Source: Sulfolobales archaeon (GTDB taxonomy: Archaea; Thermoproteota; Thermoprotei_A; Sulfolobales; AG1). Taken from it: a DNA stretch of 64,000 bases. Made by a program: the position numbers and the translations under genes. The notes below the pieces were generated by a model. The model did no database searches. It had not been told where the DNA came from and saw only the letters and a program-made list of their open reading frames with translations. Below, one piece after another: positions 23,448 through 62,077 of the stretch (positions are counted from its first letter, which is position 1; every line of letters begins with the position of its first letter). The stretch spans positions 224,001 through 288,000 of the forward strand of contig JAWBYA010000002.1 in NCBI GenBank assembly GCA_038867615.1, given 5' to 3'.

Positions 23448-23544
23448 TGGCGGGCCCGCCGGGATTTGAACCCGGGACTTCCGCCCAGCAGATCTGGTCT
23501 ACGGGTTAAGAGCCCGCCGCTCTACCGGGCTGAGCTACGGGCCC
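23448..23544 (-). tRNA. tRNA-Lys(CUU) with 20-nt intron at 45/46 (23479-23498); CCA encoded
   Basis: GGGCCCGTAGCTCAGCCCGGTAGAGCGGCGGGCTCTTAACCCGTAG[ACCAGATCTGCTGGGCGGAA]GTCCCGGGTTCAAATCCCGGCGGGCCCGCCA; BHB with CCGT/GCGG helix and AG|A, AA|G bulges. Confidence 0.95.
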
Positions 23545-48583: not shown

Positions 48584-48640
48584 GATCAGCCAGGGGTTCA
48601 CTCGTCACCACTCGGCTCTCGGCAAACTCTTCATCCTAAC
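48584..48640 (-). ncRNA. Candidate C/D-box sRNA
   Basis: AGGATGA(C)-AGAGTTTGCCGAGAG-CCGA(D')-GTG-GTGACGA(C')-GTGAACCCCTGG-CTGA(D); intergenic, AT-rich promoter-like sequence upstream. Confidence 0.7.
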
Positions 48641-49200: not shown

Positions 49201-49437
49201 TTATTCACTTCGACAACTGTCTAAAGCATTCTGGATGCATTCATACGCACTTTCTATCTTTGAGAACCTCTCTAGAAGCTGCCTCACGACATCTATACAT
49301 CTAAGCCTGTTGATAGCCATATACCTTATTATAGAGAGAAGATACGCCCTACCCTCTGATGTTAAAACCCCCCTCTTATCCAGGTAATCCCGCGTCTCAG
49401 CGATGATAGATAGATCTCTGAGTAGCTTCTCATACAA
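49201..49437 (-). CDS. Hypothetical helical protein (about 78 aa)
   Basis: TTG start chosen because the longer track ORF overlaps the tRNA half. Confidence 0.5.
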   Translation of the reverse strand: MYEKLLRDLSIIAETRDYLDKRGVLTSEGRAYLLSIIRYMAINRLRCIDVVRQLLERFSKIESAYECIQNALDSCRSE

Positions 49438-49497
49438 AACACACAGATCCCTCTCTCCCCGATCCCTGTGAAACCCTTGCCCCCAGCTAGTTAAACC

Positions 49498-49503
49498 TTT
49501 AAA
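49498..49503 (+). promoter_or_regulatory. TATA box of the tRNA-Gln 5'-half transcript
   Basis: TTTAAA ending 24 nt upstream of tRNA nucleotide 1 (49527). Confidence 0.65.
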
Positions 49504-49526
49504 TCCTGATAAAGAATTATTATTGA

Positions 49527-49564
49527 AGCCGGGTCGTCTAGCGGCCAAGGATGCGGGGCTCTGG
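49527..49564 (+). tRNA. 5' half (positions 1-37) of tRNA-Gln(CUG); candidate split tRNA
   Basis: AGCCGGG TC GTCT AGCGGCCAA GGAT G CGGGG CT CTG G, followed by trailer CCCTCCGCGCCGCCCCC; no T-arm or acceptor 3' strand downstream. Confidence 0.85.
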
Positions 49565-49580
49565 CCCTCCGCGCCGCCCC

Positions 49581-49632
49581 CTGATGAGAAGAGGGTCTTC
49601 TGATCATGTGATGTGTGCTGGAACTCCTGATC
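49581..49632 (+). ncRNA. C/D-box sRNA directly 3' of the tRNA-Gln half
   Basis: CTGATGA(C)-GAAGAGGGTCTT-CTGA(D')-TCAT-GTGATGT(C')-GTGCTGGAACTC-CTGA(D); two 12-nt guides. Confidence 0.85.
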
Positions 49633-49653
49633 CGGTTTATAGAAGATCCCTAA

Positions 49654-50292
49654 CTACCTATAACCGATCCTCTCGAGCATGCTCGATATAGCCCCCAAAG
49701 ACCTTTCAGCATATAGGCATGAGGGATCCTTATCACCGCATCCCCTCGATAGATGCTCCCTCAACACCCTCAGCTCCTCGAGAAGCGATTCCAAGTACCA
49801 CTTATTGCCAACATACCCCTCCCCCACGAGCTTCGGGCTACCCTCTGCAAAACCTTCTGGGTAGTACATGTCCCTAACTAGGTAGTAGCCGCTCACTATC
49901 ATGAGAGATCCTAGCCTTGTAGCCCCGGGATGGATCCCTCTGCTTAGTAGTGAGACAGTTTCATGATCCCTTACATATGGGATCATAACCCTCAGACCCT
50001 CACCAAAGATCCCCAGCAAATGCGGGAGGATCTCTCCTAAGGCGTTATAGAAATTCTCTGAGAGATCTGTTTCGTTAAACTCGACCCATGGTCTGTAGTT
50101 CTCCCTGCCAGTAAATACTACAAACCCTATCTCAAGACCCTTGATCCTGGATGTAACCTTATAAGCACCCCTGATCCTCCAACCCCTGCACTCAATGATC
50201 GTTGTTCCAGGGATTCTCCCAAGTTCCTGGCATATGCCTGCCTGGCCCACACGTAACCCTAGCAATATATATATCCTCGCAGGATTTAACAT
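49654..50292 (-). CDS. DUF1122-family protein
   Basis: FTGRENYRPWVE, DHET, ATRLG, RDMYYPEGFAEGSPKL. Confidence 0.8.
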   Translation of the reverse strand: MLNPARIYILLGLRVGQAGICQELGRIPGTTIIECRGWRIRGAYKVTSRIKGLEIGFVVFTGRENYRPWVEFNETDLSENFYNALGEILPHLLGIFGEGLRVMIPYVRDHETVSLLSRGIHPGATRLGSLMIVSGYYLVRDMYYPEGFAEGSPKLVGEGYVGNKWYLESLLEELRVLREHLSRGCGDKDPSCLYAERSLGAISSMLERIGYR

Positions 50293-59515: not shown

Positions 59516-62077
59516 CTATCTAGCGTAGAGCGCGTTGAAGAACAGCTTAAACGTACCATGGGTCTGGGCCCTGAATATTGGTCTGAAGCCATAGAGCAGA
59601 GCCCTACCCTTGCCAACCCTAGCCTCTATAAGGGCTGGCTTCCTGCTAAGGATATTCTCTCCTATGAGCCACCCGCTCCTCAGTATATCCCTCTCTGGAT
59701 AGGTTACAACAGATACGTAGTCCTCGTTATTATGGGATGGTATGACCTCTAGCACGGGTTTGTCGACAAGCATTATATAGGCTATCCTCGGCATTCCATA
59801 GCCCAGTGGATGCTCCATATTCACGACTGCTCTGAGCATAGATCCTGGGCAGAAGAACTGCCTCGTATCAGTTATCTCCTCAGTCAAATCTCTTACCGCG
59901 AGACCTAGACCCTTGTAGGCAAGCTCCACAGCGCTGCCCATCATTATTATCTCACCACCGCTCTCTACAAACTCCTTAAGCCTCTGGATCCCCTCCTTAC
60001 CAAAACCACTCCTATACTCCGGCGGGTAGGGTGGGAGCTTGAATGGCCTCTTTAACCTCTTGCTCATCTCCTCCTCTATATTCTCGCCAACCATCATTGG
60101 GAGGGTATCGTCGGGGAATACTATGGTGTCTACATACTCTCTCAGCTTTCCACTCTTTATAACATCATCCCTTATGATCGTGTATTGATAGCCGTAGTTG
60201 TCGAGAACATATCTAGTCCAGCCCTCCTCCATGTTGCCTCCATAGTATCTCTGATAGATACCTATCCTCAGCATCTTTACCTCGTAGTGGTTTGGATAGC
60301 TTGCGAGGAGATCCCTGTTAACAGCTATTGGCTGAACACCGACCTGTGAGGCAGCCTCTAACAGGAGATCGTATGTGTTTCCAGAATCCTCAACATAGAA
60401 TGCACCTGGGGGTATCTCCACACCACCAGCCTCGATCCCATCCCTAAACCTCCAGATCTTCACACCAGCAGCCAAGAGCCTATTAACAACTCTGTAGGAG
60501 TCGTTAAGCCTTGGATCTATAACATATCCATGAGCCTTCTCAAGCCTCACCGCCGGCGGGGCTACCGATGATATCTGGGCAATCTTAGCGCTGATGGGCT
60601 CTGTGACCTCTATAACCGTAACACCCATGAAATCAGCAACAGTATCTGTAGCTATGTCATAAGGCCTCACGGGCTTGCCATCCTTATCCCTCGTGACATC
60701 TATATCTGGGTATAGGTATCTCTCAAGAAGCCTCTTAGCCAGAGGCCTCCTCGGCTGTGAGAGTGGGACTAGATAGCTACCCTCGGGATATATTACAGAT
60801 CCGGCTTTAATTGGCTCAAGCACCCTATAGATCTTCACGCCGAGCTTTAGCAAGAGATCTATAAGCTTCAGAGTCGTTAGAGGATCATGCCCACCCTCCG
60901 GTATTATGAAGCCATATGGAGGCTCTCTAAGACCTCTCTCAATATTCCTCAAAGCCTTTAGATAAGCGTTTCTCAGAAACATCTCTCTATTGATTGCCAC
61001 TGCATAGAGGATTGCTATCGATGATAAGAGCTGCTGCCTAACAATATCGCTAAGCCTCCACCACCCACCTGGCCATGGGTTCGGGTAGTTCATATAAGGT
61101 CTATCGGCAAACCTACCCCTCCCATAACCCCTTAGCTGGTGTGGATGTATATAGATCGGTGTTGCTATCTTCGCCGAAGCAGACTCAGTAAGGATCCCAA
61201 CTATATTCATGAAATAAGCTATGGTCTGGAAGGCCGAGACAAAGTCGGGCGTGAAGGGTGCTCCTGTCTCAACACCCCTTATACCCTCCATCTCAAGCCT
61301 TGTAGCAGCATATGTTCCGAGGAACTGTGTCTCCCTCCAAGTTATTGGGTCGACGTCTGGGTATATGGGATCCATCTCTGGTGAGAGGAAGAACCTCGCT
61401 CCATAGCTACCCATGTGGTGGTGATCTATATATACCTGGGGACACCAATCGTGGTAGGCTATCTTTGCAAAGAACCTGCTCTCGACAAGGTTGAGCATAT
61501 AGGCGTCTCTATTATTATCATGCCCACAGTATGTGTGGTAGAGCCATGGTAGCGGTGTCCCCTCATACTCTGTCCCTAGGTATTTATTATAGTAATCAAC
61601 AACCATAACCTGCCCGTCTGGGTTGAAGGACGGGAATAGTATCACAACAACGTTCTCAAGGATCTTGAGGGTCTCTTCATCGTTGGAAGAGGCTAGCCTA
61701 TAGAGGAGCTCAATACTAGTCTGGGTACCCCCAACCTCTGTGGCATGGATACTGTTGGTTATAACAACAACAGCCCTCCCCTCACTAACGAGCTTCTCAA
61801 GCTCCTCTCTTTCCAGGGGTTTATCAGGGTTAGCAAGTTTGCATGAGATCTCCCTTATCCTCTCCAGCCTCTCCATATTCTCAGGCGATGATATGAAGGC
61901 AACTATAAAGCTATTACCCCCCGGGGTCTTGCCCATCTCTATAACCTTAACCCTGTTGCTCTCAGAAGCTACCTTATAGTAGTACTCAACAATCCTATCC
62001 CATCTAGCAAGCTTTCTATCCTCGCCTATCTTGAAGCCGAAGAACTCTTCAGGTCTCGTTACCAAACAAAACACCAT
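59516..62077 (-). CDS. M14 zinc carboxypeptidase with C-terminal GATase-like domain
   Basis: IHATE, NPDG, DNNRD, DHHHM; C-terminal EEGWTRYVL...GFRPIFRAQTHGTFKLFFNAL. Confidence 0.88.
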   Translation of the reverse strand: MVFCLVTRPEEFFGFKIGEDRKLARWDRIVEYYYKVASESNRVKVIEMGKTPGGNSFIVAFISSPENMERLERIREISCKLANPDKPLEREELEKLVSEGRAVVVITNSIHATEVGGTQTSIELLYRLASSNDEETLKILENVVVILFPSFNPDGQVMVVDYYNKYLGTEYEGTPLPWLYHTYCGHDNNRDAYMLNLVESRFFAKIAYHDWCPQVYIDHHHMGSYGARFFLSPEMDPIYPDVDPITWRETQFLGTYAATRLEMEGIRGVETGAPFTPDFVSAFQTIAYFMNIVGILTESASAKIATPIYIHPHQLRGYGRGRFADRPYMNYPNPWPGGWWRLSDIVRQQLLSSIAILYAVAINREMFLRNAYLKALRNIERGLREPPYGFIIPEGGHDPLTTLKLIDLLLKLGVKIYRVLEPIKAGSVIYPEGSYLVPLSQPRRPLAKRLLERYLYPDIDVTRDKDGKPVRPYDIATDTVADFMGVTVIEVTEPISAKIAQISSVAPPAVRLEKAHGYVIDPRLNDSYRVVNRLLAAGVKIWRFRDGIEAGGVEIPPGAFYVEDSGNTYDLLLEAASQVGVQPIAVNRDLLASYPNHYEVKMLRIGIYQRYYGGNMEEGWTRYVLDNYGYQYTIIRDDVIKSGKLREYVDTIVFPDDTLPMMVGENIEEEMSKRLKRPFKLPPYPPEYRSGFGKEGIQRLKEFVESGGEIIMMGSAVELAYKGLGLAVRDLTEEITDTRQFFCPGSMLRAVVNMEHPLGYGMPRIAYIMLVDKPVLEVIPSHNNEDYVSVVTYPERDILRSGWLIGENILSRKPALIEARVGKGRALLYGFRPIFRAQTHGTFKLFFNALYAR

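Follow-up and report, generated by a model that had tools for sequence, protein, structure and literature searches.

The window, which is the whole 64,000-nucleotide stretch of DNA analysed here, corresponds to C2:224001-288000 of genome G000, an assembly of 2.22 Mb in 28 contigs that is 94% complete. Inspection of its forward strand revealed one half of a tRNA gene, followed directly by a GC-rich trailer and a C/D box sRNA:

49498-49504, + strand: A/T-rich box TTTAAAT, recognized by eye, the likely TATA box of the 5′-half gene; its end lies 23 nt before A1
49527-49564 (C2:273527-273564), + strand: tRNA-Gln(CUG) 5′ exon, positions 1-37, 38 nt with one extra D-loop base
49565-49581, + strand: GC-rich trailer CCCTCCGCGCCGCCCCC, whose core (49570-49580) pairs with the leader of a 3′-half gene on contig C5
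49582-49630, + strand: C/D box sRNA abutting the trailer (C box 49582-49587, D′ guide 49588-49599, D′ box 49600-49603, C′ box 49609-49614, D guide 49615-49626, D box 49627-49630)

The TATA box, the tRNA-Gln(CUG) 5′ half and the trailer are as the original prediction had described them; it had not foreseen the second 5′ half that uses the same 3′ half, the sRNA next to the trailer or the spread of the split among relatives (see below). The exon comprises the acceptor strand AGCCGGG, the D arm, the anticodon stem strand CGGGG and the loop C-U-CUG-G, with G37 as its last base. Over the aligned exon it is 100% identical to contiguous tRNA-Gln(CUG) genes from other families of the same order, which excludes a chance resemblance. 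The locus has 89-91% identity in the relatives G001 and G005, with an unmutated exon set in diverging flanks, and the position of the TTTAAAT box is kept in the relatives G003 and G002. Two minus-strand ORFs enclose the locus, one of which (49201-49548) reaches into the exon solely through a mechanical TTG start.

The original prediction had found no tRNA 3′ half in the window, and this is indeed the case: ARAGORN and Rfam returned only a tRNA-Lys(CUU) there, and the complement of the trailer has no other occurrence in the window. Three T-loop-like matches were found in the window (1.19 expected by chance), one of them being the tRNA-Lys. This tRNA-Lys(CUU) gene, at window positions 23448-23544 (-), is contiguous and 97 nt long, and hence intron-bearing; tRNA-Lys(CUU) is described as split in Staphylothermus by Chan et al. 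2011.

A fuzzy whole-genome search with the predicted leader gave a sole meaningful match, which is the 3′ half of a tRNA-Gln on a different contig, and BLAST of the window locus against the genome revealed a second lone 5′ half, that of tRNA-Gln(UUG):

C5:102578-102599: leader AGGGGCGGCGCGCCGGGGAGAA of the 3′-half gene (whole locus C5:102578-102637)
C5:102600-102634: 3′ exon CCCCCGTGACCGGGGTTCGAATCCCCGCCCGGCTA (positions 38-73), then an encoded CCA
C9:3025-3062: 5′ exon of tRNA-Gln(UUG); with its trailer the gene spans C9:3025-3080

The 3′-half locus begins with an A/T-rich box, AAAGAATAAAAG, located 21 nt ahead of the leader, and then reads AGGGGCGGCGCGCCGG-GGAG-AA-CCCCCGTGACCGGGGTTCGAATCCCCGCCCGGCTA-CCA. 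The partner had been forecast as GGGGGCGGCGCGGAGG-AGAG-NN followed by CCCCCG...GGTTCRAATCC...CCCGGCT. One such locus exists, and its 11-nt core and whole 3′ exon match the forecast, but 4-5 nt beside the central helix differ and the helix strand is GGAG instead of AGAG. The leader core GGGGCGGCGCG is exactly complementary to the trailer core 49570-49580, and the exon strands are also complementary between the halves (CCCGGCT with AGCCGGG in the acceptor stem, CCCCG with CGGGG in the anticodon stem). The UUG 5′ exon is the CUG exon with 3 substitutions; it has the box AAATATAA 25 nt upstream and is followed by the trailer CCAGGCTGCGCCGCCCCC, which is complementary to the same C5 leader, so that one 3′ half is common to two 5′ halves. 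A/T-rich boxes, spotted by eye only, stand 21-25 nt upstream of all three pieces, each of which may be transcribed from its own box. A sigma-70/terminator scan was disregarded because it is not applicable to archaea.

Across the genome, exactly two 5′ exons (C2 and C9) and one 3′ exon (C5) were recovered with up to 8 substitutions allowed. Neither the 45 ARAGORN calls (introns of up to 200 nt allowed) nor the 44 Rfam tRNA hits include a contiguous tRNA-Gln of either anticodon in this 94% complete assembly, which bears out the proposal that an intact tRNA-Gln(CUG) should be lacking. Its presence in the missing part is unlikely, since the same arrangement occurs in two complete relatives. The exons joined in silico give a cloverleaf that ARAGORN calls as tRNA-Gln(ctg) and tRNA-Gln(ttg), of 76 nt each including the encoded CCA; as a control, 0 genes were called from the halves alone. 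The genome also encodes RtcB (577 bits) and two tRNA_int_endo (EndA-domain) ORFs (112 and 31 bits), which by their domain matches are consistent with a two-subunit splicing endonuclease.

A single gene with a long intron was considered and rejected: the halves lie on different contigs and are 32-900 kb apart in complete relatives. The C5 half is at least 35 kb away from either end of its contig, and the Gln halves of G000 would be at least about 190 kb apart even if the contigs abut. Another rejected candidate is an ARAGORN call at C5:102408-102637, a ‘tRNA-Asp(gtc)’ with a 134-nt intron, which is spurious and fuses a portion of a repeated element with the Gln 3′ exon. The repeated element (C5:~102275-102542) is about 265 nt long, structured and GC-rich, and has 20 other copies in G000 (21 in total, when its last 23 nt are matched with no more than 2 mismatches). 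The copy next to the Gln 3′ half stops 2 nt short of that gene's A/T box and is missing at that spot in G002, indicating that it was inserted later than the split. Rfam at a permissive threshold, over 11 kb around the 3′ half, gave only a chance miRNA match and no match to the repeated element, which is a candidate MITE-like element or small-RNA gene family. A CRISPR array (C1:~634000, - strand, repeats ending ...CTACTATAGAATTGAAAG) also surfaced among the fuzzy leader matches.

A BHB consists of two 3-nt bulges with 4 bp between them, and a model of the trans-precursor was built by hand on this definition. In this model, the inter-RNA anticodon stem is formed by 27-31/39-43, and the central 4-bp helix pairs C32-U33-C/U34-U35 with the leader GGAG, which includes one G-U pair for CUG and two for UUG. 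The modelled 3-nt bulges are G36-G37|C and A-A|C38, and beyond the bulge the CUG model continues with 2 bp, a 2x2 mismatch and an 11-bp helix. Cofolding of the UUG 5′ half with the 3′ half yielded the BHB architecture as the MFE structure (-75.6 kcal/mol). For the CUG pair, the BHB model (-65.0 kcal/mol) lies 9.2 kcal/mol above the MFE (-74.2 kcal/mol), in which the acceptor stem and the 11-bp intermolecular helix are retained and the anticodon region is folded locally. The CUG trailer/leader duplex (an 11-bp G-C helix plus 2 flanking pairs) has a calculated energy of -34.3 kcal/mol, compared with -23.9 ± 3.4 kcal/mol for shuffled leaders (best shuffle -41.0 kcal/mol). This control is weak because both strands are GC-rich and pair easily, and we therefore relied on covariation instead.

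Both loci were searched for in 41 genomes of the same order, G000 included. A CUG 5′ exon that lacks an adjacent 3′ exon was found in 14/41 genomes, namely in 5/6 of genus g1, 2/2 of g3, three of g2, and in G021, G023, G033 and G029, where the 3′ exon of G029 follows 755 nt downstream and is preceded by its own A/T box. The gene is contiguous, with 0-2 short introns, in 18/41 genomes, and its state was left unassigned in 9/41. In 16/41 a 3′ half stands alone, with a GC-rich leader and an A/T-rich upstream region of its own. The tRNA-Gln(UUG) 5′ half is also lone in g1 (6 genomes), g3 (2), G023 and G033, and tRNA-Gln(UUG) is contiguous in g2 and G021. No intact tRNA-Gln was found in the same-genus relatives examined. 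The halves are far apart in the complete genomes G021 (932.8 kb versus 665.7 kb) and G023 (102 kb versus 1009 kb). Trailers and leaders pair up as follows:

Genus g1: trailer CGCGCCGCCCC, leader GGGGCGGCGCG
Genus g3: trailer GCCGCCACCGCC, leader GGCGGTGGCGGC
G008: trailer ACCGCCACCGCCTC, leader GGAGGCGGTGGCGG
G012: trailer ACCGCCACCGTCTC, leader GAGACGGTGGCGG
G010: trailer TCACAACTGCCCTCCC, leader GGGAGGGCAGTTGTGA

These helices are lineage-specific in sequence with their complementarity kept, which is the signature of covariation; between G012 and G008, for example, a compensatory change affects both strands (GCC to GTC with GGC to GAC). All 15 leaders examined close with 4 nt that can pair with CUCU (positions 32-35) and 2 further nt, and the helix reaches about 27-30 bp in G021, G029 and Ignicoccus pacificus. 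When all trailers were set against all leaders in a duplex matrix, the cognate leader came first in 8/14 CUG rows, and in the remaining 6/14 it is outranked only by same-family leaders with an identical core; the G023 row discriminates poorly (cognate -31.7 versus -31.2 for an unrelated leader). In contiguous orthologues, the ends of the 37/38 intron match the start of the trailer and the end of the leader (CCCTCCG...GGGGAGAA in G034; in full CCCTCCGTGGTCGAGGGGAGAA), which fits an origin of the split by breakage within the intron. A tRNA-Gln(CUG) with two introns was observed in L045 (G016 C2:~60700-60813): the first interrupts the anticodon stem-loop ahead of the anticodon, and the second lies at 37/38.

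A wider census, with one genome per species, collected loci in which the 5′ exon is followed by anything but an intron-less continuation; G000 was left out and intron-less genes are excluded by design. It comprises 97 species-level loci, and the 80 for which titles are listed all come from Desulfurococcales or ‘Sulfolobales’ archaea:

70/97 loci: intron of 14-58 nt
10/97 loci: 3′ exon 127-1942 nt downstream
14/97 loci: no 3′ exon in a flank of 605-7662 nt nor elsewhere in the locus
3/97 loci: flank too short for judgement

One census locus, L120 (Desulfurococcaceae archaeon AG1), has an identical trailer and a nearly identical sRNA. In the complete genome of Ignicoccus pacificus DSM 13166 (L080, G041; CP006868.1) the two CUG halves are separate, with a trailer/leader duplex of -63.2 kcal/mol, and the UUG gene is contiguous:

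CP006868.1, 741213-741261, - strand: CUG 5′ half
CP006868.1, 708933-708981, + strand: lone 3′ half, just downstream of another tRNA

Both here (G041 C1:~708850-708981) and in G021 (C1:~665740-665870), a lone Gln 3′ half comes right after another tRNA, and no A/T box is obvious in between. These 3′ halves may be co-transcribed with the upstream tRNA and freed by 3′ processing.

The sRNA behind the trailer has the layout TGATGA, 12 nt, CTGA, 5 nt, TGATGT, 12 nt, CTGA, with all boxes in order and guides of about 12 nt. In Rfam it comes closest to sR20 (28.4 bits, E 0.002) and stays below the gathering score of 44, and it is thus placed in no named Rfam sRNA family. The rRNA genes of G000 are only partly assembled. 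The D guide matches 23S rRNA at 12/12 positions in G001 (10 Watson-Crick, 2 G-U) and at 11/12 in G003, and the D′ guide has no match with up to 2 mismatches in the rRNAs examined. Neither guide matches tRNA-Gln, and the called tRNAs of G000 contain no exact 10-mer target. Another sequence resembling a C/D box sRNA lies at window positions 48584-48638 (-); its best matches, sR32 (22.9 bits, E 0.0019) and sR7 (23.3 bits, E 0.015), each fall short of the gathering score.

Because no A/T box separates the trailer from the C box, co-transcription of the sRNA with the 5′ half is the simplest reading, and the trailer would then run on into the guide RNA. The sRNA is kept beside the Gln 5′ half in genera g1 and g3, where in g3 it lies about 45 nt farther on, after an A/T-rich spacer. 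In g2 it is located upstream on the other strand, and in G028 a similar sRNA follows a contiguous tRNA-Gln(CUG). RNA reads over 49440-49710 were sampled from about 3-5% of each of three same-study metatranscriptome runs and one older run. At that depth three runs (X1, X2, X4) gave 0 reads, which is uninformative for the tRNA half; the fourth, X3, gave 3 stranded reads, all at about 49579-49621 in the sRNA and continuing into unlike sequence as short inserts would, with none on 49527-49581.

These observations raise the question of whether the half gene is kept chiefly as a transcription or processing handle for the downstream sRNA, and not as a source of tRNA-Gln(CUG). Such a role would suit an sRNA that in g1 has no A/T box of its own, begins right behind the trailer and accounts for the sole RNA reads obtained, and dicistronic tRNA-sRNA precursors are known from N. 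equitans (PMC3491384). We nevertheless regard it as improbable, since the UUG 5′ half follows the same trailer logic with no sRNA behind it, the CUG 5′ half of g2 is still conserved with a complementary leader although its sRNA is upstream on the opposite strand, and a CUG anticodon could come from nowhere else in the assembly.

Still less probable, and in our judgement very doubtful, is that the 5′ half is defunct, being a pseudogene or a partial border copy left by an integrated element, with an intact gene elsewhere reading the Gln codons. The assembly is 94% complete, and partial tRNA copies left by integrated elements do exist in this genome: contig C10 (41 kb; GC 48.7% versus about 46% in the largest contigs) is bounded by direct copies of a tRNA-Gly(GCC)-like 3′ part at C10:86-102 and C10:41191-41207 (-), which also occurs at C3:267215-267231 (-). 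These flanks are the usual signature of an element integrated in a tRNA gene, in contrast to the Gln halves: for an att-type duplication the assembly holds no intact tRNA-Gln that a partial copy could duplicate, and the same-genus relatives examined hold none of either anticodon. A remnant would also not be expected to stay unmutated between diverging flanks, or to be matched by a lone 3′ half with a complementary leader that co-varies with the trailer, and the arrangement recurs in the complete genomes G021 and G023. That the junction at about 49565 is an assembly artefact breaking a normal intron-containing gene in this 28-contig draft can be dismissed with near certainty, as the 3′ half lies at least 35 kb inside its own contig with its own promoter-like box, and the exon-trailer-sRNA junction recurs in the independent assemblies of five relatives (G001, G002, G003, G005 and L120; loci L003-L006 and L120), which argues against the misassembly at about 49565-49635 that the original prediction had named as a possible refutation.

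Split tRNA genes are rare, and the cell that has one must join two RNAs into one tRNA. Judged from its sequence, the locus is almost certainly an archaeal split (trans-spliced) tRNA gene, which adds a case to a known class. We further consider it highly probable, from the sequences and the modelled precursor, that three genes jointly supply both glutamine tRNAs of the organism by trans-splicing. A mechanism is proposed where the first gene (window 49527-49581) would give the tRNA-Gln(CUG) 5′ half with its GC-rich trailer, probably running on into the C/D box sRNA, the second (G000 C9:3025-3080) would give the tRNA-Gln(UUG) 5′ half with a related trailer, and the third (G000 C5:102578-102637) would give the leader, the common 3′ exon (38-73) and the encoded CCA. 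Each 5′ transcript would anneal with the 3′ transcript in three helices: that of trailer and leader, with 10-11 G-C pairs and flanking pairs, the 7-bp acceptor stem and the 5-bp anticodon stem. The junction would fold as helix-bulge-helix-bulge-helix. The splicing endonuclease would then cut both bulges, and RtcB would ligate G37 to C38.

A broader scenario, to which we give about an even chance, is that tRNA-Gln(CUG) is a recurrent breaking point in the order. The 37/38 intron would have grown and gained an internal promoter, and the exons would have drifted apart, at least four times (in family f1, within g9, within g11/Ignicoccus and in family f11); tRNA-Gln(UUG) would have come to depend on the same 3′ half in three lineages (g1 and g3 of f1, and f11), and in g1 the excised trailer would also carry a C/D box guide, so that a single BHB cut would both free the tRNA exon and make the 5′ end of an rRNA-methylation guide.

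Outside the window, G000 appears from its sequence to hold a candidate three-piece (tri-split) tRNA-Asp(GUC):

C2:58285-58319, + strand: 5′ exon (positions 1-32), with trailer AGGTAGGCCGCCGGGGCCGCGG and then TTTT
C5:659-707, + strand: middle gene behind a separate TATATAAG box, consisting of a leader, TGTCG as the 5-nt exon (33-37) and a trailer
C2:139496-139533, - strand: 3′ exon (38-73 plus CCA), with leader CTGGGGCCTGTGGGCGCTGCGGAT

ARAGORN makes no genuine call of a contiguous tRNA-Asp in G000. Among relatives, the gene is intact in g2, has one 37/38 intron in G012 and G015, has two cis introns around TGTCG in g3 and consists of three genes in g1, and in both helices the G000 type differs from the G001/G005 type by compensatory changes. 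In the literature searched, tri-split tRNAs are described from Caldivirga only (PMC4033280, as far as the available portions of that source extend); the candidate would add another example to that class, its middle exon being 5 nt long. If the recurrent-breakage scenario is true, this three-gene tRNA-Asp of g1 and the glutamine tRNAs would together span, in living organisms, every stage between an intron and dispersed pieces.

The present locus adds both glutamine tRNAs of a crenarchaeal genus to the split tRNAs, with the same split or its precursor stages in many lineages, and the question of whether split tRNAs are ancestral or intron-derived becomes a comparative one that a single order and a single tRNA can answer. 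Cultured or isolate-level material for a direct test of the joined tRNA is offered by Ignicoccus pacificus DSM 13166 and Desulfurococcaceae archaeon AG1. With standard tRNA finders, such genomes will be reported as having no tRNA-Gln (and no tRNA-Asp) or will be falsely called, and automated annotation will mislabel C5:102408-102637.

According to the available portions of reviews from 2014/2015 (PMC4033280, PMC4390854), split tRNA genes are known from seven hyperthermophilic archaeal species, with 29 genes and 12 anticodons. Chan et al. 2011 describe split tRNA-Asp and tRNA-Lys in four Desulfurococcales and, in the available portions of that paper, report no further cases from the other crenarchaeal genomes re-examined at the time. 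The accessible text of papers from 2021-2025 (tRNAscan-SE 2.0 in 2021, a meeting report in 2023, an endonuclease paper in 2025) cites only the discoveries of 2005, 2009 and 2011. The original prediction named no known split tRNA-Gln(CUG) from a crenarchaeon, and we likewise found no crenarchaeal split tRNA-Gln in full-text searches of the literature; further entries may stand in Chan et al. 2011 Table S1 or in later GtRNAdb-type lists.

The closest parallel is the split tRNA-Glu(CUC)/(UUC) of N. equitans (Randau et al. 2005), where, as described in the portions available of PMC3218864 and PMC4390854, two 5′ halves that differ at the wobble position use one common 3′ half, the joint is at 37/38, the flanks are GC-rich and complementary, and a BHB-cutting endonuclease and a ligase are needed. 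Unlike that system, the tRNA here is Gln, one trailer continues straight into a C/D box sRNA, and the host is a crenarchaeon of the Desulfurococcales/‘Sulfolobales’ group with a genome of free-living size (2.2 Mb) and not a reduced nanoarchaeon. N. equitans also has a tRNA-Gln(UUG) encoded by two separate genes; the tRNA identity is the same, but its joint is reported at 32/33 (PMC3218864, available portions), whereas here it is at 37/38, the phylum is another one and both isoacceptors are split.

The split tRNA-Asp and tRNA-Lys of Desulfurococcales, as far as the account of Chan et al. 2011 available to us extends, share with the present case the same broad order, a 37/38 joint (in Asp), an intron-bearing ancestor and contiguous genes in related species. 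In those species the two halves adjoin each other or are separated by about 5 kb, and each genome has a single split tRNA, whereas here the halves lie on different contigs, one 3′ half serves two 5′ halves, the trait extends across a whole family and other lineages, and the tRNA-Lys(CUU) of the window is contiguous. The phyletic spread of the split tRNA-Gln is unusually wide. The split tRNAs of Caldivirga (2009; PMC4033280, PMC4390854, available portions) similarly have pieces common to synonymous tRNAs and leaders that match introns of related species, but that order is Thermoproteales and its tRNAs are Gly, Ala and Glu. Finally, C/D box sRNAs in tRNA introns (tRNA-Trp; N. equitans tRNA-Met) and dicistronic tRNA-sRNA precursors (PMC3491384, available portions) also couple a guide RNA to a tRNA precursor, from which tRNA processing enzymes would release it. 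In contrast to those, the sRNA here sits in the trailer of a split-tRNA half, the equivalent of the intron in a trans-spliced tRNA, and a guide RNA attached to a split-tRNA trailer is new relative to the cases in the literature searched, as described in the accessible portions of these sources.
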